DNA of 64,000 nucleotides from an uncultured Chloroflexia bacterium (GTDB lineage Bacteria > Chloroflexota > Anaerolineae > JAAYZQ01). The stretch lies in assembly GCA_963700285.1 (NCBI GenBank), contig CAVOXA010000006.1, forward strand, positions 142,253 through 206,252, in the 5' to 3' direction. Under the pieces are notes generated by a model. The model was not told the origin of the DNA. It did not search any database and worked only from the letters and a program-made list of their open reading frames with translations. The translations under genes were made by a program, and so were the position numbers. Positions 12,816 to 49,419 of this stretch are shown piece by piece (within the stretch, counting starts at the first letter, position 1; each line of letters opens with the position of its first letter).

Positions 12816-13809
12816 CTAGGTTCGGGGCAGTCGCAGCCCCAGGTCCAGCGACAACGCCCGGCGGTAGATCTCGGGCAGGATGGCCGCATATTCGCCCCAG
12901 ATGCCCAAGGCCAGGTAGACGATCACCTCTTCCGCCGACTCGCGGCCCGCCTTTCGCCCGGCAACGATGTCGGGCCACTGGGCATACACGTCCTCGGGGC
13001 CAAACAGCCCCAGTTCGTCGAGCATGCCCAATTCCGGTATGCGGGGCCGGACGTAGCGCCAGTTGTCCACGACGACCTTGTCCGCTTCCGTGAGCACCTC
13101 CAGGGCGATCTCCTGGTAGGAGCCCATGCGACCGACAAAGGCGCCGGGCTTGAGCCAATCCCGCTCAACCAGGGGCTGGTCGCCGGTGGTCACGGTAAAG
13201 ACAATGTCCGAAGCGCGAACAGCCCGCTCGCGTTCCGCCAGCGGCACAGCAGTCACCGGAATGCCCACCTCCGGAGCCAGCTCCTCAGCATAGGCCACCG
13301 CGGCAGCGGGAAGGATGTCGATGATGTAGGCCTGGCGCAGATCAAAGCGGTGGCAAAGGGCGCGCAGATGCATCCGGCCCAGCGTTCCCAGCGCCAAAGA
13401 TGGTGACCACCTCGGCCCCCGGCAGCGCCAGATAGGCCGCCGTCACCGCGCTGGAGGCGCCCGTCTTGAGGGCGGTCACATAGCCGCCCTCCATGATGCA
13501 GGCCGGCAGTCCGGTCTCCGCGTCAAAGAGTAGCACCATGGAGGAGGTGGTCAGGGTTCCAAAGCGTTCAGGGTTGCCAGGAAAGTAGCTAAAGGTCTTG
13601 ACAAAGGCCAGTTCTTCGCCCTGCATATAGCCGGAAAAGGGCTTGACGAAACCGGCCGGGGCGACGTCCATATAGAATTTGTCCCCAGCCACCCGGCCCG
13701 CGGCGTCGGCGCGGATCCCGATCTCGGCCAGATCCACCGTTTCGGCCATGGTGAGGGTCTGCTGCACGTCCGATTCCGTCAGATAGAGAATCGATTCTGG
13801 TACCGGCAT
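12816..13809 (-). CDS. Ornithine cyclodeaminase/mu-crystallin family protein (one frameshift at ~13385)
   Basis: ILYLTESDV, LLFDAETGLP, TALKTGASSAV, Rossmann IFGAG, SDIVFTVT, WLKPGAFV. Confidence 0.85.
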
Positions 13810-13933
13810 GTCGTCTCCTCTTACGCTGAAGACCTGACAGGGCAGATGTGAAACAGCCGTGTCCGATCGGCAGCATGGTGCATTTATGTCACCTTCGGGC
13901 AGCGCAATTCTCGCAACCCAGGCCAGAAACCCG

Positions 13934-15265
13934 TCAGATCTGCAAGCTGGCGTCCGCGATGTCCAGGGCGCCATCGATCACGGCCAAACCTTCGGCAATC
14001 TGATCAGCATCGATGCACAGGGGCGGCACGGCAAAGATCCAGTTCCACTTGACAAAGGTGTAGAGCCCCTTTTCGCAAAGATAGCGCGCGACCTCGGGCA
14101 TGGGGCCGAGCTCAGAGGACTTGGCGTTCCAGGGGGCCAGCGGTTCGCGCGTCTCCCGGTCCTTGACCAGCTCCAGGATCCAAAAGAGCCCGATGCCCCG
14201 CACATCGCCGACACTGGGATGCCGTGCCTTGAGGTCGGCCAGCCCCTCAGCCATCACCGCGCCCATCCGCCGCGCATTCTCCAGCAGATTGTCTTCCTGG
14301 TAGACCTGGAGCGCAGCAATGCCTGCCGCGCAGGACATGGGGTGGCCACTGTAGGTCAGCCCACCCCAGAAGACCTGGTCCTCAAAGTACCGGGCGATCT
14401 TGTCCGAGACGATGACGGCCCCCAGCGGCAGATAGCCCGAGGTGATGCCCTTGGCCGTGGTGATGATGTCGGGCACGACGCCCCAGTTGTCAACGGCGAA
14501 CCACTGGCCGGTCCGCCCAAAGCCGCTCATCACCTCGTCGGCGATGAGCAGGATGCCATAGCGGTCGCAGAGATCGCGCAGGCGAGGCCAATAGTCGTCG
14601 GGCGGCACGATGATGCCGTTGGTGCCGGTCACTCCCTCGGCCAGGATGGCGGCCACGTTCTCTGGTCCTTCAAACTGTACCACCTGCTCGATGTGGCTGA
14701 TGCACTCGCGGGCGCAGGTCTCTGGCTCCTGGCCAAAGACGCAGCGGTAGCAGTGGGGGTCAAAGACACGCACGATGCCGGGGATGCCCGGTTCGATGGG
14801 CAGGCGGCGCGGGTCACCGCTGGCACTCATGGCCCCGTAGGTCGCGCCGTGGTAGGAGCGATAGCGGGTGATGATCTTGTTGCGGCCGGTAGCCAGGCGG
14901 GCGATCTTGATGGCGTTTTCTGTGGCCTCCGCCCCGCCCAGCGTGAAAAAGGTCTTGTTCAGGTCACCGGGCGCGATCTCGGCCAGCATCATGCCCAGCT
15001 CGCCCCGAGGTTGCGTGGCGAAGGACGGCGCCACGTAGGTCAGTTTGTCGGCCTGCGCCTTGATGGCTTCCACCACCCTGGCATTGCCGTGGCCGATGTT
15101 GACGTTCATCAACTGGGCCGAAAAGTCCAGGTAGCGCTTGCCATCGGCATCCCAGAGATAGACGCCCTCCGCCCGGTCAATGGGAATGGGGTTCACCGCC
15201 CCCTGGCTCGCCCAGGCAAAAAACGTGTATTCCCGGTTCATACAAATAATCTCTGCGTTGTCCAT
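13934..15265 (-). CDS. Class-III (omega-amine) PLP aminotransferase
   Basis: YLDFSAQLMNVNIGH, SYHGAT, IADEVMSGFGRTG, TTAKGITSGYLPLG. Confidence 0.93.
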   Translation of the reverse strand: MDNAEIICMNREYTFFAWASQGAVNPIPIDRAEGVYLWDADGKRYLDFSAQLMNVNIGHGNARVVEAIKAQADKLTYVAPSFATQPRGELGMMLAEIAPGDLNKTFFTLGGAEATENAIKIARLATGRNKIITRYRSYHGATYGAMSASGDPRRLPIEPGIPGIVRVFDPHCYRCVFGQEPETCARECISHIEQVVQFEGPENVAAILAEGVTGTNGIIVPPDDYWPRLRDLCDRYGILLIADEVMSGFGRTGQWFAVDNWGVVPDIITTAKGITSGYLPLGAVIVSDKIARYFEDQVFWGGLTYSGHPMSCAAGIAALQVYQEDNLLENARRMGAVMAEGLADLKARHPSVGDVRGIGLFWILELVKDRETREPLAPWNAKSSELGPMPEVARYLCEKGLYTFVKWNWIFAVPPLCIDADQIAEGLAVIDGALDIADASLQI

Positions 15266-15290
15266 TTGTAGCTCTCTTCTAACTCAGTAA

Positions 15291-15386
15291 GATCCTCCCG
15301 CGGGTTGCGTGCATTCGGCTTGGCACAAAATTGTGCGGGATCTGCCCATAGCCACGCAGTTTCCACGGCAAACCCGCGGGAGGATC
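15291..15386. repeat. Intergenic 16-bp perfect inverted repeat enclosing internal hairpins
   Basis: gatcctcccgcgggtt (15291-15306) / aacccgcgggaggatc (15371-15386). Confidence 0.7.
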
Positions 15387-15431
15387 GCTCCTTCATTTGT
15401 CAAGACCACTTGCTGCCGCCTGCCAGCCAGG

Positions 15432-16607
15432 TCACACTTTCCTGGTCACCGAGACCTGGGTCGCGATGCCTCGCGCCTCCAGCTCGGCAAAGAAGGCATT
15501 GGGGTCTACGGACATCTCCGGCGGGAAGACGCCAGGGCCTGGTACGCGGCCGGCTGCCAGCCATTGGGCCACGATGGACGGACCCACGCCCGTAGGCAGC
15601 GAGCCAACCGGCGTCAGCGTGCCCAGCCGGTAGGTCACCTCTTGCCCATCCTTTGTACCGGCTATCTCTGTGACGATTTCTTTGGTCCACCGAGTAGGAT
15701 CCACAGCTTCCTGCAGGAAAGCATCCAGCGGCGGAACATAGTCGGCCATGAGTTCCACCAGCAGCTCGCGCGGGTAGACCGGCGCACCCCGCAGTTGGAC
15801 GGGTTCCGAACTGGCAAAACCCAGATCGGCCAGCAGCCGGACCTTGGCAAAGGCATCGGGGCTCATGCCCCAGTAGTTGATCTTGAAAAAGCACTCGCGC
15901 AGCCCCTTGTCAGCAAAAGAAATCGGCAGGGTGGCCACTTCCGAATGCAGCGAGAGGTGGCAGCGGAGCAGGCCAACCGGAGGCGTAAACCAGTAGTCCT
16001 CTTCGCCGGAGAGGGGCTCCTCCTCTACAAATTCGCCGCCGCGAAAGACCATGGGCGGCATGATCAGCTCGTCGATGATGGTCGGGATGGCATAACCAAA
16101 GCGAATATCATCGCCCGGCGGAGGCAGGATACCATCGTAGATGCGGATAGAATCCACCGTATCCAGGCGGTCGGCGGCATAGCGGGAGTGGACGTTGGGC
16201 ACGCCCGGCGCGCTGCCCATGCCCAGCACCGCCGTCAGCCCCGCCGCAGCAAAGTCGTCGTGCAAGGCCAACTGCTTGCGGGTGTTGAAAAAGAGGCCGC
16301 CCATGTCCGTATAGTGCGTCCCGGCCTCCAGGCACGCTTGCATCACCTCCAGGTTGAAATAGTAGTGCACGGCGTTGAGCACGGCGTCCGCGCCACGCAG
16401 CACCGCGACCAGTCCATCCCGGTCAGTTACGTCAACTTCCTTGACCGACACTTTGCCCCGTCCCACGGGCAGCAACGCCACCACCTTGTTTGCCAGCCCG
16501 GTATCGCGGTCGGCGATGATCACCTGCTCGACGCCATCACTGGCGGCCAGGTCCTTGACGGCGATGCGTCCCATCAGGCCCGCACCACCCAGCACGACGA
16601 TCTTCAT
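15432..16607 (-). CDS. Saccharopine dehydrogenase-family oxidoreductase (lysine 6-DH / carboxyspermidine DH-like), copy 1
   Basis: IVVLGGAGLMG, HYTDMGG, GMGSAPGVPN, HSEVATLP, GVFPPE. Confidence 0.9.
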   Translation of the reverse strand: MKIVVLGGAGLMGRIAVKDLAASDGVEQVIIADRDTGLANKVVALLPVGRGKVSVKEVDVTDRDGLVAVLRGADAVLNAVHYYFNLEVMQACLEAGTHYTDMGGLFFNTRKQLALHDDFAAAGLTAVLGMGSAPGVPNVHSRYAADRLDTVDSIRIYDGILPPPGDDIRFGYAIPTIIDELIMPPMVFRGGEFVEEEPLSGEEDYWFTPPVGLLRCHLSLHSEVATLPISFADKGLRECFFKINYWGMSPDAFAKVRLLADLGFASSEPVQLRGAPVYPRELLVELMADYVPPLDAFLQEAVDPTRWTKEIVTEIAGTKDGQEVTYRLGTLTPVGSLPTGVGPSIVAQWLAAGRVPGPGVFPPEMSVDPNAFFAELEARGIATQVSVTRKV

Positions 16608-16645
16608 GAGTTGTTTCCTCCTTGTCTCATCTGTCTAGTGCTATT

Positions 16646-17557
16646 TCACATCACTTTGTCCTGCAACACACCCCACACCTCATAGATCACCTTCAGCGCC
16701 GCAAACGAGGTGGCGTCCGATTGATCCAGGGGTGGCGATATCTCTACGACGTCCATGGCCCGCACCGGCAGCTCCTGGGTGACGATGCGCATCAGCTCCA
16801 GCAGATCCCTCGTGCTGGGGCCGCCGCCTTCAGGGGTGCCGGTTCCGGGCGCGTAGGCTGGATCCAGACCATCGATGTCCAGCGTCACATAGACAGCCGG
16901 AACACCCCGCAGCCGCGCCACTACCTCTTTGGCAATGGCTTCGATGCCCCGGAGGTAGCACTGGCGGGCGGTATGGTAGGTCATGCCCGGGTACGCGGCC
17001 ATCGACTCGCGGTCCTCCGGGCAGAAGCAGCGCACCCCGACAAAGACCATGCGCCAGGGATCTGACCCGGCAAGTTCCAAGGCTCGCCGCTCCGAACAAG
17101 CGTGGGACCAAGGATTCCCATCATAAGTATCCCACAGGTCAAAGTGAGCGTCAAAATGCAGGATGCCAAAGGGTCCATCGACAACCCGGTCAAAGGCCCG
17201 CATCAGCGGGATGGTCACCGAGTGATCCCCGCCCAGGAACAGGGCAAGGGGGTGCTGCAGCGCCTCCACGGCTCGCTCTTCGACCATCGGCAGGTCCCGG
17301 GGCCAGGCCAGGTCGGACGGCACGTCGCCATAGTCCCGCACCCGTACCCGCAGTGGTTCTCCTTCTTCGGCGCTGGGCGCGAGCTGCAGCGTCAATTCGC
17401 GCAGCTTTGCAGGAGCTTGAGCCGCGCCAAGACGGTGCTGGGCTGCCCCATCGAATGGGATGCCCAGCACGCCGACCTCAGCGCCCGGATCCTCGCTGGC
17501 CAGCCCGCTCCACACGTCGTGGTGGTCATGAGCGACTGGTGCAGTCGCCTCTGTCAT
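16646..17557 (-). CDS. speB: Agmatinase / ureohydrolase family
   Basis: GIPFD, LGGDHSVT, HFDAHFD, TLDIDGLDPAYAPGTGTPEGGG; metal ligands intact. Confidence 0.85.
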   Translation of the reverse strand: MTEATAPVAHDHHDVWSGLASEDPGAEVGVLGIPFDGAAQHRLGAAQAPAKLRELTLQLAPSAEEGEPLRVRVRDYGDVPSDLAWPRDLPMVEERAVEALQHPLALFLGGDHSVTIPLMRAFDRVVDGPFGILHFDAHFDLWDTYDGNPWSHACSERRALELAGSDPWRMVFVGVRCFCPEDRESMAAYPGMTYHTARQCYLRGIEAIAKEVVARLRGVPAVYVTLDIDGLDPAYAPGTGTPEGGGPSTRDLLELMRIVTQELPVRAMDVVEISPPLDQSDATSFAALKVIYEVWGVLQDKVM

Positions 17558-17685
17558 TTGTCCCCCCTTCGCGCAATCCAGACCTCGGAGGTGTGGTTTC
17601 GAGGTCAGGACCGCGACGATGCGCAGGCTCCAACCGGTGCAAGCAAAGCGCCTGCAACAGAGACCTCCGAGGTCTCGGGTTTCGC

Positions 17686-18825
17686 CTACAATTCTTCTAC
17701 CTTCTCATGGATCTGGATCCCGCGCCGGGCCAGTTCCCGAAAAAAGATCTCGGGATCGATGGCCGTCTCTGGCGGGACGACGCCCCGCACCTGGACGTCG
17801 CCGCGGGTGATCATCTGGACGCCGATGCTGAGCGGAATGGCAATGTTCTTGTAGTAGGCCGCCTTGCCGCCCCACTCGTCCATGCCCGGGTGGCGGTTCC
17901 AGTAGGTGTACTTGCGATCGCGCCCATCCACCTTGCCCATGACCTCCACCACGAGGCCGTAGGCCCAGAGCGGCGTCTCTTTGCTGTCAGGGAGCGCCAA
18001 CAGAACCTCGTACATCATCTCAAAGGCCGTGGTCTCTATGCCCTTGACTGTAATCGGCTGCTCGCTGTAGAGGCCCGATTCCAGCATCGACTTGGCCAGC
18101 CGCATGGCGTGGGGCGGGAAGCAGCCGCGCACCGATACCGCGCGGGCGCCCAGGCTCTTGGGCATGGTGCGCACCTCGGGATGGGGGATGTAGCACACCT
18201 CCTGCTCGCCAATGGGGCCAGGAAAGGTCATCTTTTGCACGCCCTCAAAGGGCCCCACCCGGTGGTAGACGCCATCCTCGTAGTAGAGCCGGTCGTCCAG
18301 CTCGGGGTGGAACTCCCACAGGAAGGTGACGAGCAGCCCGGGGGACGGGGCTGGGCAGCGAAAGGCGGCAAAGTAGATCTTGATCTCGTCCACCTCATCC
18401 AGTTGGTCTGCCCCGCGCCGGGCCATGGCATTGGTAATGCCCGGCGTGGCGCCCATACCCGGGATGAACACCATGTCCTTGTCCACCGCTGCGGCGTGAT
18501 AGCTCCACTGATCCTCCTCGGTGGAGACGTCGAGCCCGTTCACGCCGACCTCAACGCAGGCCCTGGTCACGGCCAGATCATACTTCCACGGCAGGCCGTT
18601 GAGGATGACGTCATAGTTGGAAAAGGTCCTCACCAGCTCATCGTGGTCCTCCGCGTTCACCTGGACCACCCGCAGACGTGGATCGCCGATTTCGGCGGCC
18701 AGCTTTTCCGCAGCGGCGACGTCATAGTCGCCGATGACAATCTCGTCAAAGTCCGAGAACTGGGCCAGGTCGCGGGTGGCATGCTGGCAGACGGCGCCCG
18801 CGCCGCCCAAAGATAGTACTTTCAC
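17686..18825 (-). CDS. Saccharopine dehydrogenase-family oxidoreductase, copy 2
   Basis: VLSLGGAGAV, GMGATPGITN, HPEVRTMP, GVVPPE. Confidence 0.9.
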   Translation of the reverse strand: MKVLSLGGAGAVCQHATRDLAQFSDFDEIVIGDYDVAAAEKLAAEIGDPRLRVVQVNAEDHDELVRTFSNYDVILNGLPWKYDLAVTRACVEVGVNGLDVSTEEDQWSYHAAAVDKDMVFIPGMGATPGITNAMARRGADQLDEVDEIKIYFAAFRCPAPSPGLLVTFLWEFHPELDDRLYYEDGVYHRVGPFEGVQKMTFPGPIGEQEVCYIPHPEVRTMPKSLGARAVSVRGCFPPHAMRLAKSMLESGLYSEQPITVKGIETTAFEMMYEVLLALPDSKETPLWAYGLVVEVMGKVDGRDRKYTYWNRHPGMDEWGGKAAYYKNIAIPLSIGVQMITRGDVQVRGVVPPETAIDPEIFFRELARRGIQIHEKVEEL

Positions 18826-19065
18826 GATTGCCCTCCATGATTCTTGGTTTTGATGTCGACACCTGACAGGGCGGAACTTGCGCGCGGCGCATCCGTTGGC
18901 AAATCTGCTCAGGTCTTTTCACTCCACTCCCGCCAGGCCTGTCGCTGAGACTCAGTCGAAGCGTCCGTGACCTGGCGGCTCCGGCTCACGTCGGTGCTCA
19001 TGCCGCTGGTCACGGACCAGCAGCGAGCAACAGAGAGCCAGCGACACTTGGACCAATAGACCGGA

Positions 19066-20377
19066 CTAGCCCTTGGCTTCCTTGACCGATTCCTCAAAGT
19101 AGGTCAATGTGTCGGCCACATCCTGTTCCGACAGCGCGGCGCACAGGAACCAGGGCTCCTCACCGTCGGGCTCAGGCATCGCTCCCCGGACCACCATTCC
19201 GGCGACGACTTTATCGTACAGCTCGGAGTCGACGCGCTGCCAGGAACGAAAGTCGATCGGCTCTTCCTCGCCGAAGGAGATGCCAAACATCGCTGGGACG
19301 CCCAGCATACTGTGGGGGATGTCCTGGTCGGTCAGGATGCCGTGGATGCCCGTCATCAGCGCCTCGCCCCGGGCCTTGACCGTATCCAGTACCCCTACCT
19401 CGGCAATGATCTCCAGGGTGGCGTCAGCCGCGGCGGTGCCCACGACGTTGCCGCAGTAGGTGCCGCCGTGCGCGGTGCGGCCCGGCCCGACGCTGGCCAT
19501 GACCTCCTTCTTGCCGCCAATGGCGGCGATGGGGTAGCCGTTGCCCATGGCCTTGGCGTAGGTGGACCAGGTCGCCCTGGATGCCAAACAACTCCTGCGC
19601 GCCGCCGGGCGCGACCCGGAAGCCGGTCTTGACTTCGTCGATGATCATGACGATGCCATACTCGTCGCAGAGCTCGCGGATCAGCTCCAGCCAGCCCGGC
19701 TGGGGCATGATGCCGCCCAGGTTGCCCATGATCGGCTCGACGATGATGGCCGCCACGTCGCCCCACGCCTGCCTGACCGTGCGCTCCAGCGTCTCAAGGT
19801 CGTTGTAGGGCAGCGAGATCACCAGCTCCTGGATGACCCTGGGAATGCCTGAGGTCATTGTCACCGGGATCGGGCTGCGGCTGTTGCCCATGGCCGAGAC
19901 CGGCGAGGAGGCGGTGGAAAAGAGCATATAGTCGTACATGCCGTGGTACTGGCCCTCGAATTTGATGATCTTTTCCCGGCCCGTGTGGCTACGGGCGATG
20001 CGCAGGGCGTGCATGGTCGCCTCGGTGCCCGAGTTGGCATAGCGTACCATGTCCACGCCGGGGCACATGGCCACGATCCGCTCGGCGACCTTGACCTCCA
20101 GCTCGTGCGTGAGGGCAAAGACCGTGCCGCTGTTGATCGCCTCGGCCACACGCTCGACGACGGTCGGGTGGCCGTGCCCCAGGATGACCGGACCATAGCC
20201 CAGCCGGTAGTCGATGTAGCGGTTGCCGTCGAAATCCCAGATGTAGGTCCCCTGGGCACGGGCCACCCCGATATTCTTCCCTTCGCCATAGTAGCGAAAG
20301 TTCGAGGTTACGCCAAAGGGCATCACCTTTTCGGCGCGCTTTTGAAAAGCATTGTTCTTTTCCATACTGTACGTCAT
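19066..20377 (-). CDS. Class-III aminotransferase, glutamate-1-semialdehyde aminomutase-like (frameshift at ~19570)
   Basis: MPFGVTSNFR, YIDYRLGYGPVILGH, NSGTEATM, FEGQYHG, IDEVKTGFR, TYAKAMGNGYP. Confidence 0.85.
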
Positions 20378-20479
20378 GTTTTCCTCCCTAGTCTTGGTCC
20401 AGTTTTCATTGCGTGCGTCAGCTTGTCTTACTCTCGGGCTTGCAAAGTCTCGGAAGGCTTTGGAAGTCTAGATCCGAGG

Positions 20480-21343
20480 TCACGGAATGTCAACATCTGA
20501 GACCGGCCTGACAAGGCGCCCGTAGGTGTCGGGTCGCCTGCGCCGGTAAAACCCGAATGTACTCCGCCAGCGATGCAAGAGGTCCGCATCGAGGTCAGCC
20601 ACAATGACTTCGGTCTGGTCCCGGCTGGCTTGAGCCAGGATCTTGCCCATGGGATTGCAGATGAAACTGCTGCCATAAAACGTCACGGCCTCCTCGCCAG
20701 TTCGGTTGGCGGCCGCGACGTAGACCTGGCTGGTGACGGCCTGCCCGCACATGGCTGTCCGCCAGGCTTCCATCGAGTCCATCTCTGGCTGGCCCGGCTC
20801 GGAACCGATGGCCGTGGGATAGAAAATAAACTCGGCGCCGTTCAGGGCGCAGATCCTCGACACCTCGGGGAACCATTGGTCGTAGCAGGTGGGCGCCGAG
20901 AGCTTGACCTTGCCCAGGTCGTGGACCGGGTACTCGCCGGCCCCAGAAAAGTAGTAGGTTTCACGGTATCCCTCGCCGTCTGGGATATGCACCTTGCGGC
21001 TGGAACCCGCCAGCGCCCCCCGGGAATCATGGAGTGTGGCCGTGTCGTAATAGCAGCCATCCGCCGCTTTCTCAAAGATGCTGCCCACCAGCCACAGCTC
21101 GTGGTCCCTGGCCAGCGCACCCAGGAACCTGTCCGATGGCCCACCGCGCAGGGGTTCCGCCCAGGTAAAGCCCGCGTCATCCATGGCGCTGGCAAAATAG
21201 GGCGAGAGGGTGAATTCTTGGAGGCAAACCAGCTCAGCGCCGCGGCCGGCCGCCTGGCCCACCAGGTCGCGATAGGTATCCATCATCGCCGTCCGGTCAC
21301 CCGGCCAGTGCGTCTGCGCGACGGCAACCCGTATGGTCTCCAC
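20480..21343 (-). CDS. Nitrilase-superfamily amidase, N-carbamoylputrescine amidase-like, copy 1
   Basis: Catalytic triad CLQE / RKVHIP / TCYDQWFPE, plus YPTAIGSEP. Confidence 0.85.
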   Translation of the reverse strand: METIRVAVAQTHWPGDRTAMMDTYRDLVGQAAGRGAELVCLQEFTLSPYFASAMDDAGFTWAEPLRGGPSDRFLGALARDHELWLVGSIFEKAADGCYYDTATLHDSRGALAGSSRKVHIPDGEGYRETYYFSGAGEYPVHDLGKVKLSAPTCYDQWFPEVSRICALNGAEFIFYPTAIGSEPGQPEMDSMEAWRTAMCGQAVTSQVYVAAANRTGEEAVTFYGSSFICNPMGKILAQASRDQTEVIVADLDADLLHRWRSTFGFYRRRRPDTYGRLVRPVSDVDIP

Positions 21344-21433
21344 ATACCCTCCCTTGAAGCTCGTCCCCTAGACCCCGGAGGTTGCGAACCAATCGGTTCG
21401 TCGAAAACCCCCGAGGTCCATCCCTTCAACCAG

Positions 21434-23542: not shown

Positions 23543-23580
23543 GTTACGCCCCCGGCCCTGAGGACCTGGCCCCGGCCAGA

Positions 23581-25518: not shown

Positions 25519-25520
25519 TG

Positions 25521-39978: not shown

Positions 39979-39991
39979 GATTGGCCCCTGA

Positions 39992-41029
39992 CTAACTGTA
40001 GCGGACCCGCGGGTCCAAGAGCCCGTAGGCAATGTCGGCCAACAGGTTGGCCGAGACGGTGAAAACGGAGGCAATGATCAGAATAGCCATCAACAAGGGA
40101 TAGTCCCGCCCCGTCGCGGCCTGGTAGTAGAGGCGGCCCATCCCCGGCCAGGAGAACATCAGTTCGACGTACAGCGAGCCGGCAAAGATATAGGGGATGT
40201 CCAGGGCAAAGATGGTCACCAAGGGGATCAGGGCATTCTTGAGCGCGTGCCTGAACATCACCGCCCTTTCCGAAAAGCCCTTGGCCCGCGCCGTGCGGAT
40301 ATAGTCCTGGTGGATCACGTCCAGCATGCCGGCTCGCAAGAAGCGCGAATACCAGGCTACCCAGCCCACGGCGCCCATCGTCACGGGCAGGATCAGGTAC
40401 TTGAGCCGGTCCCGGATGGAAAAGCCAGCCCCCAGCGTTTTCATGCCCCCGGCGGGCAGCAGCGGTTCGCCGGTGACAGGGTTGTTGAGCAGGGAATAGA
40501 AAACGATGATCAGGATCATGCCCAGCCAGAATTCGGGGATCGCTTGGCCCATGAAAGACAGGGTGGTTACGGTGATGTCAAATAGGGAGTACTGTTTGAC
40601 GGCGGAGAGGACGCCGATAGGGATGGCAATGATAAAAACGATGACCAGGGTGATGCTCATCAAGTAGACGGTGTTGCCCAGGCGGTCCAGGATCTCGTCT
40701 AGCACCGGCTTGCGCGTCTTGTAGGAGAAGCCAAAATCACCCCGCAGGATGCCCTTGCGCTCGCCGCGGCTCTCGGTGATCCCATCGCCATCGGCGTCGA
40801 TCTTCATCCAGTCGTTGCCGATGAGCCAGACCACGTACTGGACGGGAAGGGATTGGTCCAGGCCAAGCTGGCGCCTGAGTCTCTCGCGCACCTGAGGCCT
40901 GGGACGCTGCCCGCTCATTGCCGCCACCGGATCTCCCGGGGCAACGCTGACCAACACGAACAGCCCCACACTCAGCAGCAGCAACATTGGAATGGCTTGA
41001 AGCAAGCGTCTAGCTATGTAGCGGCCCAC
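39992..41029 (-). CDS. Opp/Dpp ABC permease, OppB/DppB-type
   Basis: YIARRLLQAIP, APGDP, GDFGFS, QDYIRTARAKG, FSWPGMG, LDPRVRY. Confidence 0.93.
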   Translation of the reverse strand: MGRYIARRLLQAIPMLLLLSVGLFVLVSVAPGDPVAAMSGQRPRPQVRERLRRQLGLDQSLPVQYVVWLIGNDWMKIDADGDGITESRGERKGILRGDFGFSYKTRKPVLDEILDRLGNTVYLMSITLVIVFIIAIPIGVLSAVKQYSLFDITVTTLSFMGQAIPEFWLGMILIIVFYSLLNNPVTGEPLLPAGGMKTLGAGFSIRDRLKYLILPVTMGAVGWVAWYSRFLRAGMLDVIHQDYIRTARAKGFSERAVMFRHALKNALIPLVTIFALDIPYIFAGSLYVELMFSWPGMGRLYYQAATGRDYPLLMAILIIASVFTVSANLLADIAYGLLDPRVRYS

Positions 41030-41320
41030 GTTGCCCACCCTCCTCGAAAACCTTCAGTGCAGCAGGCATTCTCACCAGTCCTTGCCTCCCTCGCTCGAGA
41101 TCGTGCGAAAGAGCTCGTGCTGGACCCGATCCCCGCACTTTGGGGACACAGCCCAGCACCTGCGCGCACAGACCGGCGGACTGTGGTCCGCCTGGAGCTG
41201 TTTGGCAAGTTTTGACACAGTCTTGCTCCTGGCAGTTCCGACCCAACAGACGCCGGCCCCTTCCAGGTATCGTACCATCTCCGACGACCGGTTTCGGAAA
41301 ATCTGTCAGGTCTGGTCTTG

Positions 41321-42748
41321 TCACAACGACGGGCGCCAGGTCGGATCGCCGAACCAGGGACGGACGCGCTCCAACGCCGCGGCCACCCGGAACACACGCT
41401 CATCGTCATAGGTGGGTCCCACGATCTGCACCCCGGTCGGCAGCCCACCACTGGCCAGCCCCGAGGGCACGGCCAGCACCGGACAGCGGCTGGCTATGTT
41501 AAAGGGAATGGTCAGAATCGTATCAAAGTAGTCATCCAGCACCACACCGTCGACCATGACCTTGGTCTCCACATAGTCGTCACCGGCCAGCAGCGCCGGG
41601 ATTCCCGCTGTCGGGCAGATCAGGGCGTCGTAGCGTTCCAGGATCTGACCCAGCTCGGCATAAAGCCGGCCCTCGATCTCCAGGCCCTCCAGGAAGCTGA
41701 TCTCGCGACTGGCCGCCTCAGCGCCGTCGATAAAGGCCCGGGTATAGGGCATGAGCAGATCCGTGTGTTCACCCGAGCTGTCCCCACTCGCGGCCGCAAA
41801 GATGGCGCCATAGTGGGCCCAGCTCGCCCGGGAGATGTCCGCGCGCTTCCAGGAAAACTCGACCTCCTCGACCACGGCGCCCGCCTCGCAAAGCGCCTCG
41901 GCTGCGGCCCGGGTATTGGACTCGACCTCCGCCCCAATGGCATAGTCGCCCAGGTGGATGGACAGCGCTATCTTGCTCCCGTCAATGCCACCCAGCTCCT
42001 GCGGGATCCGCACCGCCGGGCGCAGCGAGACCACGTCCAGGGGATGAGGCCCTGCGATCACATTCTGCAGCAGTGCGCAGTCGGCTACCGTTCGAGCCAG
42101 CGGCCCGTCGTGGCAATAGTGGTCCAGGTTAAAGGGCGGCAGGGCCGGCACCCGGCCGTAGGGCGGCTTGAAACCCACCACCCCACTGAAGGATGCCGGG
42201 ATGCGGATCGAGCCGCCGATGTCCGAGCCGGTGGCCAGGACCGCCGTTCCGGCCGCCAGTGCGGCCCCCGAGCCCCCCGAAGACCCTCCGGGAGAGTATT
42301 CCAGGTTCCACGGATTGCGGGTCACGCCCCACAGCCTGGTGTGGGTAAAGCCGGCGCAGCAGAACTCGGGCGTGGTCGTGCGGGCATGGACGATGCCGCC
42401 AGCAGCGACGATCCGTTCGACGATGGGGTGCGTGATTTCGGCCACGTTGTCCTTGTACAGCAGCGAGCCCTCAGTCGCGGTATGCCCGGCGATGGGATGT
42501 TCCTCCTTGATCGCGACGGGCAGGCCTTCCAGCGCCCGGGGAGGCGCGCCGCTCCCGGCATAGCGGGCCTCCGCGGCGCGGGCCTGCTCCAGCGCCTCAT
42601 CGAACAGCCGCTCGGCGAAGGCATTGATCTTGGGCTCGACAGCTTCGGCCCGCTCAATCACCGCTACCATCAGCTCGACGGGCGACAACTGGCGCGCGCG
42701 AAACAGCCGCAGTAGTTCCGTCGCCGGTAGATAGATCAAATCCTGCAT
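41321..42748 (-). CDS. Amidase-signature family amidase
   Basis: GLPVAIKE, PGGSSGGS, GSDIGGSIRIPAS, GLPTGVQIVG. Confidence 0.92.
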   Translation of the reverse strand: MQDLIYLPATELLRLFRARQLSPVELMVAVIERAEAVEPKINAFAERLFDEALEQARAAEARYAGSGAPPRALEGLPVAIKEEHPIAGHTATEGSLLYKDNVAEITHPIVERIVAAGGIVHARTTTPEFCCAGFTHTRLWGVTRNPWNLEYSPGGSSGGSGAALAAGTAVLATGSDIGGSIRIPASFSGVVGFKPPYGRVPALPPFNLDHYCHDGPLARTVADCALLQNVIAGPHPLDVVSLRPAVRIPQELGGIDGSKIALSIHLGDYAIGAEVESNTRAAAEALCEAGAVVEEVEFSWKRADISRASWAHYGAIFAAASGDSSGEHTDLLMPYTRAFIDGAEAASREISFLEGLEIEGRLYAELGQILERYDALICPTAGIPALLAGDDYVETKVMVDGVVLDDYFDTILTIPFNIASRCPVLAVPSGLASGGLPTGVQIVGPTYDDERVFRVAAALERVRPWFGDPTWRPSL

Positions 42749-42923
42749 GAGCATCCTCCTCGGGCCGCCAGGCTCACGGGCCCGATTCCTTTTCCGCAGG
42801 CCGCAGGATCCTCGCGGCTTCGGCTTTCTGTTGAACCTCCGGTGGCAGGACAGACTTCCAAAGCCAGGGACGAACCTCAGGTTCACGACTTTGGAAGTCT
42901 GGTTGCCGGCGATTCACAGGCGG

Positions 42924-44717
42924 TTATTCTGCGATCTCCCAGTCCGCGATGTTCCAGGTGATCATATCATTGGCATTGTCGACAATGCCCTTGATCCGCG
43001 GGTTATAGCCCGCAGCTTCGATGGAGACAAACAGCGGGATATTGGACAGGTCTTTATCCAGGATCTCGGCGATCTGGCAAAAGACCTCTTTCCGGTACTC
43101 TTCGTCCAGCGTATAGGTCTCGTCCAGCAAGGCATCAAAGTCCTCGTTCGACCAGCGGGTTACGTTCCAGCCCATGTCTGGTTCCATGGCGTCGGTGTGG
43201 TAGTAGACCCACAGGAAATCGGTGAGCTGGTTGCCGGCGTAGCCGTCGTCCCACAGGTCAAGGTCAAAGTTACCGTTCTGCTCGATACCCCCGTCGTCGT
43301 AGGTGCCCCATAGCTGGCTGCCCTCGACCATGCCCAGCTCGGTGCCCATGCCGAGATCATTCAGATCCTCGGCGATGAGCTGGTGGGCCAGCTCCAGCGT
43401 CTCACCCCATTCCGAGTAGACCAGGAACTCGGTCACCATCTCATAGCCCTCGGGCGCGCCGGTGGTGCAGCCGTGGCACTCACGAATGCCGTCCCCGTCG
43501 GTGTCGGTCCAGCCGGCCTCCTCCAGCAGCGCCTTGGCGCCTTCGAGGTCGTATTCCGGCTTGGGGACGTCGCACGTATAGGGCTCGCGGTAGAACTCGG
43601 TCCACTGCACGGTCATCATACCTGTGTCGCCCCAGACCCCCGCCAGGATCTCGTCGGCGTTGACGGCCATGCGCATGGCCTGGCGGACGCGCAGGTCACT
43701 AAAGATGGGGTGCGGATCGGCCTCCGCATCGATAGAGCCCCTGGCCGCCAGGTTGGGCCACATACGCACCAGCCAGCGGCCAAACTCGGCCCTACTGACC
43801 TCCACGGCATCCGTCTCGTTGTAGGCGTTCATAACGGTCTCTATGATCCAGAAATCCACGTCGCCATCGCCGCCCAACATCATCTCCTGGCGGACCGTCG
43901 CCTCGGGTACAATCTGGACAAAGACCTTGTCGATGCTGGGTTTGCCTTCTTCATAGTAGTTGGGATTGCGGACAAAGGTCAGGTGATCGCCAGAGTCCCA
44001 CTCTTCGAGAAGGTAGGGACCACTGCTCAGCGGATCCCGGTTGCAGTCCCACGAGCCGATGCCCCCATCCCCGGTGCAATAGTGCTCGGGCCAGATGGCG
44101 CCATAGAATCCGCCGAGCTGCTCCAGGTAATCGGGGTAAACGCCGTTATAGTGGACCACAAAGGTATAGTCGTCTATCTTTTCAATACTGTCCGTATAGT
44201 CCATACCCGGCACCCACATGCCGGTCTCGGGATCGGCGAGGGCGTCCCAGGTAAAGATCACGTCGTCGGCCGTAACCGGCTCGCCATCCGACCAAAAGAC
44301 GTCGTCCCGCATCGTCCAGGTGACGTCCATAGTCCACGCATCCTCGTCGATGACCACACCACCGTTTTCGATGGTGGGCAGCTCTGCGGCCAACTCGGGA
44401 AAGATCTCGCTGTTCGGGCCGATGTCAGCCATGGCCAGCAGGGTCATCTCGGCCACGAGGTTCTCGTAGCCGGTATCGGTCAAAAAGTGGTTAAAGCTGG
44501 GCGGATCCTCCATGGAGAGGATGACGACGCTCGTTTCCTCAGCTTCAGACTCCTCAGGCTCGGGCGCCATGGTCGGTTCAGCCTCAGCCGCCATGGTCGG
44601 CTCGGCCTGGGCAGGCGGCGCCGGCTCCTGGGTGGCCCCACAACTCAGCAAGCCGGCCACAAGGACCGCGCACACCAATGCCAGCGCCAACAGCTTGATC
44701 GTTCGCTTTTCCATCAT
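42924..44717 (-). CDS. Opp/Dpp ABC substrate-binding lipoprotein (SBP family 5)
   Basis: Lipobox LLSC, WSDGEPVTADDV, SSGPY, RNPNYY, VRQAM. Confidence 0.92.
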   Translation of the reverse strand: MMEKRTIKLLALALVCAVLVAGLLSCGATQEPAPPAQAEPTMAAEAEPTMAPEPEESEAEETSVVILSMEDPPSFNHFLTDTGYENLVAEMTLLAMADIGPNSEIFPELAAELPTIENGGVVIDEDAWTMDVTWTMRDDVFWSDGEPVTADDVIFTWDALADPETGMWVPGMDYTDSIEKIDDYTFVVHYNGVYPDYLEQLGGFYGAIWPEHYCTGDGGIGSWDCNRDPLSSGPYLLEEWDSGDHLTFVRNPNYYEEGKPSIDKVFVQIVPEATVRQEMMLGGDGDVDFWIIETVMNAYNETDAVEVSRAEFGRWLVRMWPNLAARGSIDAEADPHPIFSDLRVRQAMRMAVNADEILAGVWGDTGMMTVQWTEFYREPYTCDVPKPEYDLEGAKALLEEAGWTDTDGDGIRECHGCTTGAPEGYEMVTEFLVYSEWGETLELAHQLIAEDLNDLGMGTELGMVEGSQLWGTYDDGGIEQNGNFDLDLWDDGYAGNQLTDFLWVYYHTDAMEPDMGWNVTRWSNEDFDALLDETYTLDEEYRKEVFCQIAEILDKDLSNIPLFVSIEAAGYNPRIKGIVDNANDMITWNIADWEIAE

Positions 44718-44836
44718 TCTCTTCCTCCCTTTCTTCGGTGAGACAAATTTCGCCTTCCTTCAACGTTCGCCCGCATGGAAACCGTGTGGAGAGCCGTCTT
44801 GACAGGCTTCTGACCACCCCCTTTCAGCTCGCTCGG

Positions 44837-45481
44837 CTAAAGGCTGGCCAACCTCTTGGCCTCGGCCACCGCTGAGATGGCGTCCTCCGCATAACCATCG
44901 GCCCCAATCTGTTCGGCCCAGGTTTCGGTCACCGGTGCGCCGCCGATCAAAACCTTGACCTGGTCGCGCAGGCCAGCTTCTTCCAGCGCATCGATGATCT
45001 TTTGCTGCTGCAGCATGGTCGTCGTCAGCAGCGCCGAAGCGCCGATCAGGGTCGCGCCCGCCTCTCTTACCGCGTCGATGAACTCGGCCGCCGTCTTGTC
45101 CACGCCGATATCGGTGACCTGAAACCCGTTGGCCGTGAGCATGGTGCCCACCAACGTCTTGCCGATCTCGTGCAGGTCGCCCTCCACCGTGCCCAGCACC
45201 ACCCGGCCCAGGATCTCGCGCTCCTGGCCAGCGGCCAGGGCCGGCTCCAGGATGGTCAGCGCCGCCTTCATGGCATCACCGCCCATGATCAGGTCGGGCA
45301 AAAAGTACTCGCCCGTGGCGAAAAGCTCGCCCACGCGGTCAATGCCCGGGCTGAGCCCCTCGTTGATGCAGGCCAGGGGATCGAGGCCCTGCTCCAGCGC
45401 TTCCCTGGCCGCCTCCTCCGCGTCCTCAGGCTCGCCATCGACTACTGCCTGTGCCAACCTGCCATAGATCTCCTCCGACAT
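44837..45481 (-). CDS. Methyltransferase cognate corrinoid protein (MttC/MtbC family)
   Basis: GEYFLPDL, GTVEGDLHEIGK (DxHxxG), SALLTTTM, IGGAPV, IGADGY. Confidence 0.93.
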   Translation of the reverse strand: MSEEIYGRLAQAVVDGEPEDAEEAAREALEQGLDPLACINEGLSPGIDRVGELFATGEYFLPDLIMGGDAMKAALTILEPALAAGQEREILGRVVLGTVEGDLHEIGKTLVGTMLTANGFQVTDIGVDKTAAEFIDAVREAGATLIGASALLTTTMLQQQKIIDALEEAGLRDQVKVLIGGAPVTETWAEQIGADGYAEDAISAVAEAKRLASL

Positions 45482-45683
45482 TGGTGCCTCCTTCAGGTTA
45501 TTCTGGATGTACCGAATTTCGGGGTAAGCCGCGGCCTGTGCGAAAAACGCCAAGCGCCTCGCTGGCGCATTATGCCACAGAACGCACTAGTACGCAACTC
45601 CCCCAATTCTGCCCTGGCGATTGCCACGGCGCAAACAGCGCGCCTCGCAATGACAGAGACCCAAGAGCAGGTCTTCCCCAGGT

Positions 45684-47137
45684 CTATCCAAACTGTACCT
45701 CAGCCGCAGCTATGATGGCCTGCAACTCAGCCCGCTGCGCAGCCTCCAACGGCTCAGGTTCGTGCTCGGCCAGTATCCGGCCAAGCTCCATTCTCGCTCG
45801 CTGCCGGATCTCGGGCAGGCGGCTGCCGTCCAGCGGCGGCCGCGGATGTGAAAGCTCGGGGATCCAGATATCCCGCAGGTGCTGCCGGCTGTGCTCCTGG
45901 GCCAGGTAGTGACCCCTGGGTCCCACGGCTGCGATGACGTCCAGGGCCAGCGCATCTGCCCTCGTGTCCAGACCCTCGGCCAGGATCCGGTTGATGTGGT
46001 AGATCTCGTCGTCATAGATGATCTGCTCTGGGGCCAGCAGTGTTGAAGCCGCGCAGCATGCCGCCGCCGGTAGCGATATCGGCGCCGGCCAGCGGCACCA
46101 TCAGGGCCGTATAGACGTGATCGCGGCCCATGCGCCACGTGTCCGGGTTGGTCGCCGTCCATGCCAAAGGCCCCGGCCAGGATGGGCACACCCCAGTCAT
46201 GGGCGATCTGGACCGCCGCCGCGTTGCACAGGAACTTTTCGGGGATACTGACGATATAGTCGGCGGTACGGGGATCCATCACCGAGCCCAGCAGGGAATA
46301 GAAAACGCTGGCCCCGGGTGCCACCAACTGCATCAGCACCAGAGCGCTGACCACCTCGGCGCTGCCCACGACCAACGCCCCACCGGGCGCGGCCGGCGCG
46401 GTGGCCCCCATGTTGGGCATGGCCATAAAGCCCACGGGAATGCCCGCCTCGGCGTAGACCATGCCGGCCTCGATGCCCTCCGGGTCCTGGCCCAGCGGCG
46501 CGATGGTACAGATCAGCACCGACATGGGCGGATTGGCCCTCATCCTCTCCCGATCTCCGGCGATCACCTCCGCCATGCGGACCGCGTACCGGGCCGGCTC
46601 GCCGCCCATCACCGTCTCTGTCTGCACGTGCTTGACGGTATTGTTAAAGCTGGCGTCCAGCTCGTGCAATGGGGCCAGGCGGCCATAGTCCTGGGCGCTG
46701 ACCATCGGCCAGTAGAAAGAGACGGAGGACAAATAGTCGGCCACCCGCGCCATCATGGCCACGTCCTCCTTGCACGACCGCCGCTCCTCGTCCCGTGTCT
46801 GAAATCGAGGGTCCGCGTCCCGCAGCCATCGGTGCCAAAGTAGGTGGCCGTCCCGTCGAGCAGCAGGCCGGTCCCAGCCGATCTGCCCGGCGAGGGTGTA
46901 GGTGCGCGGGGCGTGGCTCATGGCCTCGACGACCAGGTCCGGCGTCAAGCGCACAACCTCGGTCTCCCAGTCCACCCGGGCGCCGTGCTCGGCAAAGACG
47001 CTCAGTGCACGCTGCGATGGAAAGTGTACGCCCACGTGCTCCAGCACGTGCAGCGTGGCGGCCTTGATCTCGCTCACCTGCCCCGCGCTCAATACCTCAC
47101 AACGGCGGTTGGGCCGGATGGGCTTGATGTCTGGCAT
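45684..47137 (-). CDS. MttB-superfamily methyltransferase 7, non-Pyl (frameshifted)
   Basis: HVLEHVGV, FYWPMVSAQD, KHVQTETVMG, CTIAPL, MGATAP, VGPRGHYL. Confidence 0.85.
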
Positions 47138-47202
47138 ATTCTTCCTCCCCTCATCCAGACGTCCGAAGTTTCGGAAAACTTTGGAAGTCAACCCCAGTGT
47201 GT

Positions 47203-48646
47203 CTAGAGCGGCTCAAAGTGGAACTCGGGTCCCAGGTAGCGGCGCACGATGCGCTCCAGCTCGGCCTCGACGCCAGCAGGCAGCGGCGGCGGGCTGTGCT
47301 GGGCCAGCAGGTCCTGGGCCCGTTCGCCGGCAGACATCCTCGATGGTCTCACCTCTGGCCAGCCAGGCGTCATAGGCTTCGCGGTTGAGGATATCTGGCA
47401 GCCAGTGCTGGCGAAAGGTGCGGCGCGTGTGTTTGGTCCGAAGAAAGTCACCGCGTGGCGTGTTGGCCTTGATCAGCGCCACCTCCTCATCCACGTCCGT
47501 GCAGCGGTGATGCCCTCCATCATGCGCCGCAGCCCGGCGATAAACTCATTGTCCAGTACCATCTGCGTGTACGAGATGGACGCCCCGGCGTCGGTCGTGC
47601 CCACGCCATAGATGATGTCCGCACCCTCCAGCAGCAGGGGCACGGCCGTGACCGCCTTCTCAAAACCAGCCTGGGCGTCCAGCTCCTTGGCGTCGGAGGA
47701 GAGCCCGCCGCACATGGATGGCATGCCATAATAGCGCCCCATCAGCGCCGCACCGGCGTTGATCATGCCTCGTCTCCGGCGCGCCGAGCGGCAGCATCCC
47801 GGTGCGCATGTCCAGTACCGCCGAAACGCTGCCATAGAGCAGGGGCAGCCCCGGATACAGGATCTGGAGGACGACGATCCAGGCCAGGATGTCGGCGTTG
47901 ATGACGACCAGCTCGCCCAGGAGCGTGGCCGGGGCCGAGGCGCCGCCCATGGCCATGCTCAGCAGGGTGATGGGCACGCCGTGGGCCGGCCCAGCGCATC
48001 ATGCAGCGCACGTTCTCTGGGGTAAAGTAGCCAGGGCTGATGGGGCAGTAGAGCGGTGGCAAAGTTGGGACGGGCACGAAAGGCGTCCTCGCCACCGGCC
48101 ACGGCGGCCAGCATCTCAAAGGCAGCGTCCACCCGGTCGGGCGACAGGGTGCGGTGGACCACCGGCTTGCCGGTGCCGCGCAGCAGTTCTGCGATCTCGA
48201 CCAGGTCGGAGCATTCCCCCTGGTCGGTGGCGGTGACGGTCGGCCGGACAATGTCCACCTGGGGCAACGCATCCTGCAGGCGTCACCAGGTCGCGGACGT
48301 CCTGCCGGGTGGCCGGCCGCCGCCGGCCCGTCTCCAGATCAAGGACGTTGACCGGGGTCCCGGCGCCCATAAAGCTGGGCCTCTCATAGAAGGTCGCCGG
48401 TGTACCGCCTGCCCGGTCATACAGGCGCATGCGGCGCGGGAGGGTTCGCAGCGCTTCCCACACCAGTTCCGGGCTGGCGCGCACCATCTGCGCGTCCCAA
48501 TCGACCTGGAAACCCGCTGCCTCCAGGCGGGCCAGGGCCTCGGCCTCGGGCACGCAAAAGCCCACTTCAGCCAAGATCTCCACAGTCTTGACGTGGATCC
48601 GTTCTGCAACTGATTCAGAAAGATAGCGTCCGGGCATCGTTTCCAT
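47203..48646 (-). CDS. MttB-superfamily methyltransferase 8, non-Pyl (frameshifted)
   Basis: EILAEVG, CPISP, MGGASAPATLLG, GAPET, GMPSMCGGLSSDAKELDAQAGFEK. Confidence 0.85.
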
Positions 48647-48711
48647 CCTTGATGGTCCAGTCCTTGCCGGCTCCTGCACGGACCTTCGACCCCAGGCCTT
48701 CAGTTCAGAAC

Positions 48712-49237
48712 CTATCGGGCTCGCCCTGCACTCGCTGGCACAGCCTCTGCCGTCACAGGCTCAAGGGGCGCTGGCCTGGGCGCTTCCGCCTCGCCCCAGC
48801 GGTACGACAGCTTGTACATCTTTAGGATCATAAAGGTCTCGGTCCGCTCCACGCCGGGGACCCGCTGCAATCTGTCGCTGAGAAAGGTAACAAAATGATC
48901 CCTGTCGCGGCAATAGACCTCGACAAACAGGTCAAAACCGCCGGAGGCCATGAACAGGTAGGTGACTTCGGGGAACTGGGCAATGGCATCAGCCGCGGCC
49001 TGCAACCTGCCCGGCCTGGACCGTGACCCCGATCATGCCCGCCGAATTCCATTCCAGAAGCTGGGGCTCCACCACACCGACGATCTGGAGCACTCCCGCG
49101 TCGGTCATACGCTTGACGCGGCGGCGTACCGCGCCTTCCGTGAGGCCCAACTCGGCCGCGATCTCGGTATAGGGCATCCGCCCATCGTACTGCAGGTGGC
49201 CGACAATGGCCCGGTCGGTGTCATCCAGTTGCTTCAT
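48712..49237 (-). CDS. Lrp/AsnC-family transcriptional regulator (frameshift at ~49000)
   Basis: MKQLDDTDRAIVGHLQYDGRMPYTEIAAELGLTEGAVRRRV HTH, then SGGFDLF...VPGVERTET RAM domain. Confidence 0.9.
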
Positions 49238-49274
49238 CCGTACCCGCCTCCAGTCTTGCCTGGGGCACAGCCAA

Positions 49275-49367
49275 TTCGGAAACATGACGCGTTCAGGAAC
49301 AAAGCGTGTTCAGGAACATGGCGTGTTAGGAACACTGGCGTTGACAATCCTGACATGTCCAAGAACA
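49275..49367. repeat. Short direct-repeat array in the leader of the Lrp/MttB cluster
   Basis: gcgttcaggaaca (49289), gcgtgttcaggaaca (49304), gcgtgttaggaaca (49321) plus degenerate flanking copies; ~16-17 nt period. Confidence 0.6.
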
Positions 49368-49390
49368 CCGCGTGGTGTAGATTGCACGGC

Positions 49391-49419
49391 ATTATATACG
49401 AATTTCGTAGGAATGTCAA
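49391..49419 (-). promoter_or_regulatory. Consensus sigma70 promoter at the head of the 29-gene cluster, with a palindrome in the spacer
   Basis: Minus strand TTGACA-17-TATAAT; spacer contains the TACGAA-N-TTCGTA inverted repeat (49397-49409). Confidence 0.8.

Follow-up and report, generated by a model that had tools for sequence, protein, structure and literature searches.

What do eight MttB-family methyltransferases do among enzymes of guanidine and polyamine breakdown? This question is raised by a gene cluster in a 64,000-nucleotide stretch of DNA from an uncultured Chloroflexia bacterium (contig CAVOXA010000006.1, assembly GCA_963700285.1), referred to below as the window. Open reading frame (ORF) listing, Pfam and tblastn with intact orthologues confirmed the cluster as it had initially been annotated: 29 co-oriented minus-strand genes at 12816..49237, among them eight MttB genes and one corrinoid protein gene, with intergenic gaps of 2-282 nt (start codons adjusted by hand). 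Gene order and alignments point, with a probability that we put at about 0.55, to an operon, conserved in Anaerolineae, whose likely role is to demethylate N-methylated polyamines or diamines under anaerobic conditions and then to degrade the backbone, guanidino ends being the task of an optional cassette. Because the 7.05-Mb source genome (G000) contains 59 PF06253 matches, fragments counted, proximity to MttB genes is weak evidence by itself, and conservation in relatives bears the claim. The genes on which the argument turns are as follows (SDH, saccharopine-dehydrogenase-like enzyme).

47213..48679, minus strand: MttB1, orthologue group A, frameshifted; without the beta1 Asp, Tyr kept at the MttB Y364 column
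45684..47137, minus strand: MttB2, group B, frameshifted
44837..45481, minus strand: corrinoid protein, above the TIGR02370 cut-off
37478..38950, minus strand: MttB3, group C, frameshifted
35993..37387, minus strand: MttB4, group D, frameshifted
34855..35937, minus strand: agmatine-deiminase-family (PAD_porph) enzyme; D96, H218, D220 and C351 present
33329..34789, minus strand: MttB5, group E
32368..33265, minus strand: CN-hydrolase 2, N-carbamoylputrescine-amidase-like, frameshifted
29885..31336, minus strand: MttB6, group F
28333..29781, minus strand: MttB7, group F, a paralogue of MttB6 at 67% identity
26889..28322, minus strand: MttB8, group G; Asp95; Glu312 at the MtgB R312 column
20480..21343, minus strand: CN-hydrolase 1
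19066..20377, minus strand: GSA-aminomutase/GntE-like class-III aminotransferase, frameshifted; constant partner of SDH2
17686..18825, minus strand: SDH2, carboxyspermidine-dehydrogenase-like; catalytic His/Glu kept, Asp33 in place of the NADP-binding Ser34
16646..17557, minus strand: agmatinase-like ureohydrolase (arginase family)
15432..16607, minus strand: SDH1, a second carboxyspermidine-dehydrogenase-like enzyme, also with Asp33
13934..15265, minus strand: class-III omega-aminotransferase, PRK06062 subfamily

The linkage between MttB genes and the deiminase was kept in relatives. Among the best 80 of 308 loci from a deiminase-seeded search, MttB genes were present, within the locus sequence available, in 26/26 Anaerolineae/Chloroflexota loci of the deiminase clade (57-90% identity), compared to 0/54 of the remaining loci, which include an Aerophobetes and a Clostridia metagenome-assembled genome (MAG) at ~50% deiminase identity. 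The MttB-free Clostridia locus has putrescine-carbamoyltransferase-like genes and a Pot-like transporter beside its deiminase. Named relatives were Anaerolineae/Chloroflexota MAGs. Their typical gene order is Lrp, MttB A, corrinoid protein, family-5 solute-binding protein (SBP) with OppBC, MttB C, D and E, one or more deiminases, carbamoylase, MttB F and G, and SDH, aminotransferase and oxidase genes. Related clusters add a gamma-aminobutyrate (GABA)-aminotransferase-like enzyme, aldehyde ferredoxin oxidoreductases (AFOR), an aldehyde dehydrogenase (ALDH), putrescine-carbamoyltransferase-like genes, a dimethylglycine-dehydrogenase-like N-demethylase and, at one locus, an MT2-type pterin protein.

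Seeding with MttB8 separated the constant partners from the variable ones. MttB8 matched 7/250 class genomes, and the deiminase (E<=1e-40) was found in 0/7 of these. At the family level, where many MAGs are fragmented, MttB8 was present in 7/22 genomes; 6/7 of these had a close SDH2 and 2/7 had the deiminase clade. The MttB8-seeded metagenome set comprised 80 loci, 33 of them at least 8 kb long, and these long loci carried MttB F (23), SDH1/2 (21), a class-III aminotransferase (19), any guanidino/carbamoyl enzyme (11) or the deiminase (7). We rejected the idea that the deiminase is core, both on the class and family counts and on L103, L105 and L111-L113, where the array is present and the deiminase is missing from its usual place. 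The agmatine/guanidine genes are an optional cassette, and the steadier partners are the SDH enzymes and the class-III aminotransferases. We also observed loci (L159, L165, L167, L169, L173, L177, L178) where the only MttB is of group G; an APC amino-acid permease comes after it, in many cases with a DAO-family oxidase as well. As a minimal version of the system, these loci may ease substrate identification.

The cluster MttBs fall into seven positional orthologue groups (A-G) whose place in the gene order is kept. PF06253 was matched over cut-off by the four intact genes (187-220 bits) and, in pieces, by the other four. In none of the eight is the pyrrolysine position occupied by an in-frame TAG, and the genome gave no PylS match above the cut-off, in agreement with their annotation as pyrrolysine-free enzymes. 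Against TIGR02369 the four intact MttBs scored 289-348 bits (cut-off 525). In a tree of 117 intact sequences, built by a quick method with Shimodaira-Hasegawa-like approximate likelihood ratio test (SH-aLRT) support only, groups A and C-G were each supported at 100, group B being a single row.

Pairwise alignments to MtgB and MttB fixed the motif columns, and the active-site positions given here rest on sequence alignment only; an AlphaFold model of MttB8, built on 12 aligned sequences, reached a pLDDT of 36 and was set aside. MtgB binds its substrate with aromatic residues (Y97/F356) and a carboxylate clamp (R312/H348), and R312 is reported to be kept in every characterised quaternary-amine MttB (PMC13080624); G110-T111 of MttB lie at the pyrrolysine site (PMC9842639). 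Across 276 distinct intact sequences with at least 55% identity to the group representatives, Arg was present at the R312 column in 0/276 and His at the H348 column in 0/276, and group G had Glu at the R312 column in 98/103. At the Y97 column the residue is T, C, Q, S or E, and the F356 column is non-aromatic except in group C, the alignment being gapped at that point. Asp was present in 262/262 group B-G sequences at the MttB F109 column, which directly precedes G110-T111. MttB7 and MttB8 scored 158-163 bits against MtgB, compared to 270 bits for a control MttB of G000 with R312. Because R312 and H348 are absent and the MtgB score is lower than that of the control, the cluster MttBs are, by alignment, not MtgB-type betaine enzymes. 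Of the three outcomes named initially as refuting the proposed pathway, two were thus checked and did not refute it: likeness to known betaine demethylases, and loss of the linkage in relatives.

Loss of R312 was rejected as a specific marker of this cluster, since G000 has 24 further intact MttBs and R312 is present in just 1 of them; the F109-column Asp is likewise present in 1. The uncharacterised MttB clade numbers 4140 proteins at E<=1e-50 among 8000 scored, and an ESM Atlas search returned known families only. Further large MttB/corrinoid arrays with other active-site motifs are found at G000:C14:389-430 kb and C1:297-326 kb, the latter adjoining RACo and a pterin-binding gene.

The backbone enzymes point to polyamines. 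The closest solved relative of SDH1 and SDH2 is carboxyspermidine dehydrogenase (CASDH; 8DEB), with E 1e-47 compared to 6e-22 for lysine dehydrogenase (3ABI). Both keep His228 and Glu230 and have lost Glu229, giving H-P-E in SDH2 and H-S-E in SDH1. With Ser34, Arg35 and Thr36 of CASDH as reference residues for the NADP pocket, Asp33 at the Ser34 position was invariant in 15/15 aligned SDH sequences; an acidic residue at the NADP-binding position generally selects NAD. We found no NspC carboxyspermidine decarboxylase in G000 and five other cluster genomes (incomplete MAGs or genomes of unstated quality).

SDH2 was more widespread than MttB8 in the class (40/250 compared to 7/250 genomes), and it was found in 0/300 other genomes of the phylum at E<=1e-90. 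Among ~43 matches, 15 SDH2 loci in genomes that MttB8 did not match were hand-picked for long contigs; they showed a GntE-like aminotransferase in 14/15, a PotD-like protein in 9/15, PotB/PotC in one more, and MttB groups C, E, F and G in 0/15. The MttB-free module at L207-L221 comprises SDH2, a GntE-like aminotransferase, often SDH1, a GABA-aminotransferase-like enzyme, AFOR/ALDH and PotABCD. PotD and an MttB of the cluster set (group A) occurred together in one locus only, and the PotD query used gave no match in G000. Because the MttB-free SDH2 loci often adjoin Pot-type genes and G000 shows no PotD, the backbone looks like a polyamine module to which the MttB array and a different importer were added. 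The MttB-free SDH2 module is itself a candidate for an undescribed anaerobic polyamine catabolic pathway, common in Anaerolineae. A satellite copy in G000 (C10:1269700-1278900; L204:5022-14890), likewise present in the same-genus genome G001 (C9), has the order GntR, MttB E, APH-kinase/class-III aminotransferase fusion, SDH2 paralogue, MttB F and dimethylglycine-dehydrogenase-like demethylase.

An intact orthologue of the GntE-like aminotransferase scored 562 against an NCBIfam cut-off of 525; other guanitoxin genes were absent from the annotated neighbours, so the GntE label denotes family resemblance only. The deiminase resembles agmatine deiminases, not PPAD, and D96, H218, D220 and C351 match the catalytic Asp/His/Asp/Cys of agmatine deiminase, but it scored 243 bits against TIGR03380 (AguA; cut-off 382). 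Both CN-hydrolases fell below the NCBIfam AguB cut-off, and the agmatinase was just over its own (174.6 compared to 174.3). The annotated cyclodeaminase belongs to the OCD/mu-crystallin family but may be an alanine dehydrogenase, its top score being to the archaeal alanine dehydrogenase model, below cut-off. Relatives often carry a second deiminase that is absent from the window (L038:11217-12296, L024:11117-12202 and others), in which Gly replaces the His before the catalytic Cys; by alignment, this might widen the pocket for a substituted guanidine.

Together, these genes would allow the following route. The methylated amine would enter through the family-5 SBP/OppBC importer, which, as gene order suggests, would stand in for the Pot transporter of the MttB-free module. 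Each MttB would move an N-methyl group onto the shared Co(I) corrinoid protein, a chemistry established for the family acting here on a predicted substrate. The invariant Asp, plus the group G Glu in place of the MtgB Arg, may bind a cationic, carboxylate-free substrate. G000 encodes Fhs, ACS, RACo and pterin-binding proteins (Wood-Ljungdahl pathway and activation), with the RACo and pterin genes outside the cluster, and pterin-binding MT2 and RACo from there would hand the methyl group on to tetrahydrofolate and into the Wood-Ljungdahl pathway. Where present, deiminase and carbamoylase, or ureohydrolase, would turn guanidino ends into amines. SDH1 and SDH2 would cleave or deaminate the freed polyamine with NAD+, in the reverse of the carboxyspermidine dehydrogenase reaction. 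The aminotransferases, with the aldehyde oxidoreductases of relatives, would carry the fragments to GABA/beta-alanine-type acids, and the OCD-like enzyme possibly recycles pyruvate from alanine. The initial proposal of demethylation followed by backbone degradation is thus supported in part, with a shift of emphasis: the optional guanidine cassette and the Pot-associated polyamine module favour N-methylated polyamines/diamines over methylguanidines or methyl-arginines.

A more far-reaching version is tentative, and we regard it as improbable on the whole. Groups B-G would form a third mechanistic class of MttB, pyrrolysine-free, in which the active-site Asp activates non-quaternary N-methyl amines and methylated polyamines, for example the long-chain ones of diatoms, are demethylated stepwise. 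Demethylation would be coupled to an undescribed NAD-dependent polyamine cleavage, a reverse carboxyspermidine dehydrogenase reaction common in Anaerolineae. Sediments are known to contain methylated long-chain polyamines from diatoms (PMC12206195). Nothing in our analysis singles them out as the substrate.

Several observations weigh against demethylation of polyamines. Natural methylated polyamines are mostly tertiary or secondary amines, but the characterised non-pyrrolysine MttBs act on acidic quaternary amines (PMC13080624, PMC12155760), which are demethylated once (PMC12155760). Among the 33 long MttB8-seeded loci, 9 had no amine enzyme at >=50% identity, and several MttB8-seeded loci adjoin an amino-acid permease and a DAO-family oxidase instead. 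Absence of R312 is not special to the cluster (23/24 other intact G000 MttBs are without it), and in groups A, D and E strand beta3 or beta2 bears an Arg; this residue could bind a carboxylate group, in keeping with methylated amino acids as substrates. The 55% identity threshold inflates conservation in the motif set, whose related sequences are not independent, and the 15 MttB-free SDH2 loci were chosen by hand. The Pot, AguA, AguB and alanine-dehydrogenase labels are all below curated cut-offs. All of the proposed chemistry rests on gene association and alignment, and an abundant natural source of substrate for these habitats is not established.

Some of these points would suit the degradation of N-methylated lysine or arginine, free or in short peptides, from eukaryotic or algal proteins. 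The MttBs would then demethylate side chains, SDH1/2 would act like lysine-6-dehydrogenase, and the deiminase and amidase would act on arginine derivatives. The satellite kinase-aminotransferase fusion, which we take to resemble hydroxylysine kinase/phospholyase, fits this explanation, as do the peptide-type family-5 importer SBP, the Arg inside the barrel in groups A, D and E, and pipecolate oxidase as one of the two best models (far below cut-off) of the DAO-family neighbours. We nevertheless consider it unlikely. SDH1/2 are far nearer CASDH than 3ABI and keep the His-x-Glu pair that lysine dehydrogenase lacks (PMC10413350), the MttB-free module accompanies Pot transporters, and the deiminase is not PPAD-like.

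The cluster could also be a co-regulated nitrogen and C1 scavenging regulon without a common intermediate, in which the substrates of the MttBs are various quaternary amines with no relation to one another, and those of the polyamine enzymes are unmodified spermidine, putrescine and agmatine. Dozens of MttBs are encoded in the genome, the SDH2 module is in 40/250 class genomes compared to 7 with MttB8, and gene content differs widely among loci, L107-L110 being arrays without most amine enzymes. This is quite unlikely given that genes for amine enzymes lie scattered among the MttB genes in an order that is kept, the MttB-SDH2 pairing recurs in the satellite copy, a close SDH2 accompanies MttB8 in 6/7 family genomes, and the transporter type switches with the presence of the MttB array. 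Least probable by far is biosynthesis, in which methyl-corrinoid would donate methyl groups for making methylated or elongated polyamines and SDH1/2 would catalyse reductive condensation. CASDH and carboxyaminopropylagmatine dehydrogenase (CAPADH), deiminase, carbamoylase and ureohydrolase are indeed parts of known spermidine biosynthetic routes (PMC13683441), but the six cluster genomes searched gave no carboxyspermidine decarboxylase, SDH1/2 have an NAD-type motif, and the presence of importers, aldehyde oxidases and GABA-aminotransferase-like genes speaks for a catabolic direction.

Anaerobic demethylation of polyamines, the reading that we favour, shares its parts with described systems. 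The MtgB, MtcB, MtpB, MtyB and MthB systems (PMC13080624, PMC12155760) likewise have PF06253 proteins without pyrrolysine, a cognate corrinoid protein, and MT2 and activator in the genome; MtgB was compared directly by sequence, and the other four by published description only. The cluster MttBs differ in that the R312/H348 clamp is absent, the Y97/F356 cage is lost and an invariant Asp lies near the active site, and the cluster has seven paralogue groups on one corrinoid protein, with polyamine enzymes as neighbours. The best PDB match of MttB7 and MttB8 (185-186 bits) is the pyrrolysine MttB of Methanosarcina barkeri (7XCL, PMC9842639). Groups B, C, E and F have G-T/C-G at its loop G110-T111-G112, and groups A and D keep Tyr at Y364, whereas the cluster MttBs have no amber codon, no PylS over cut-off and Asp for F109 in groups B-G.

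SDH1/2 share His228 and Glu230 with carboxyspermidine/carboxyaminopropylagmatine dehydrogenase (8DEB; PMC10413350, PMC13683441) and differ in the change of Glu229 to Pro or Ser, the Asp in the NADP pocket, the missing partner decarboxylase and the catabolic context. The AguAB route and the agmatinase SpeB use the same families as the cluster, and the deiminase keeps the catalytic Asp/His/Asp/Cys; it differs as a distinct, optional Anaerolineae clade, and it and the CN-hydrolases are below curated cut-offs. Aerobic demethylation of methylguanidine by a dioxygenase and a lyase (PMC12508155) also removes N-methyl from a basic nitrogen compound, but this route is oxygen-dependent and its enzymes are unrelated to those of the cluster. 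We found no literature link between MttB and polyamine or agmatine catabolism in a search in which most subscription journals were not covered. Every part belongs to a known family; novelty lies in how the parts are combined, in the altered motif and in the substrate class that is predicted.

The remaining features of the cluster are its control region, its importer and its accessory genes.

49391..49419, minus strand: sigma70-type promoter TTGACA-17-TATAAT, consensus match 12/12
49397..49409, no strand assigned: 13-bp perfect palindrome in the promoter spacer, candidate Lrp/AsnC operator
48712..49237, minus strand: Lrp/AsnC regulator (Pfam, tblastn), frameshifted in the assembly
42924..44717, minus strand: family-5 solute-binding lipoprotein
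41321..42751, minus strand: amidase-signature enzyme, accessory
39029..41038, minus strand: OppB- and OppC-like permeases, OppC frameshifted; ATPase genes absent from this copy
31467..32291, minus strand: short-chain dehydrogenase (SDR), accessory
25243..26885, minus strand: FixC-like flavoprotein and FixX ferredoxin
23581..25125, minus strand: amidohydrolase-3 family enzyme
22217..23542, minus strand: major facilitator superfamily (MFS) transporter
21434..22012, minus strand: flavodoxin-like FMN protein
12816..13809, minus strand: OCD/mu-crystallin family protein, frameshifted; best model archaeal alanine dehydrogenase, below cut-off

The perfect promoter reported above the Lrp/AsnC gene was found as described (12/12 at 49419-49391), and a similar promoter lies 5' of this gene in relatives too. 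With 119 perfect TTGACA-17-TATAAT matches genome-wide, this consensus is not rare in the genome. The spacer palindrome has no other exact copy in the 7.05-Mb genome, and its ACGAA half-site recurs at an equal spacer position in 15 related loci. It is a candidate autoregulatory operator through which Lrp/AsnC likely controls its own promoter. In L017, L024, L025, L027, L033, L035 and L037 the Lrp gene starts ~8 nt downstream of the -10 box, which suggests leaderless transcripts, unlike the window, where the leader is ~150 nt. No strong internal terminator or promoter above chance was found in the cluster, terminator scans being at shuffle level. A second promoter-like site (20493-20465, 10/12) was at chance level, overlapped a palindromic intergenic repeat and was not counted. 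This imperfect repeat has four copies in the cluster (window 20434-20471, 32327-32362, 35959-35996 and 47155-47189) and few close copies elsewhere in the genome. One metatranscriptome (0.06 share) gave short contigs only, mostly <90% alike.

The annotated Opp/Dpp importer is present as SBP, OppB and OppC, with no Opp ATPase gene within the cluster. Upstream, at 50067-57672 of the window, lie divergent family-5 SBP/Opp genes and amidohydrolases, many of them frameshifted. Inside the cluster, frameshifts interrupt 9 genes (AsnC, MttB1-4, OppC, CN-hydrolase 2, one aminotransferase and OCD). In G001, OppC, CN-hydrolase 2 and OCD are intact and 7 genes that are whole in the window are broken; MttB4 is broken near residue 310 in both. 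Because the breaks in G001 fall in largely different genes, most frameshifts are probably assembly (long-read) errors. The description of the cluster as an island was not borne out. GC content is flat (0.62-0.68 inside compared to 0.61-0.67 outside), which leaves a compositional island unsupported, and no integrase or transposase was found among the flanking ORFs scanned.

Most MttB homologues are without pyrrolysine, and the handful with known substrates all act on acidic quaternary amines. For a large uncharacterised clade, the cluster described here offers a specific lead open to assay: the orthologue groups number seven, they share a single corrinoid protein, and both a catalytic Asp and a substrate class can be put forward as candidates. 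The cluster further brings to light a module, predicted to catabolise polyamines anaerobically, in 40/250 class genomes. If the favoured reading is true, methylated polyamines would find a sink in the Anaerolineae of sediments, and their methyl groups would feed the Wood-Ljungdahl pathway.

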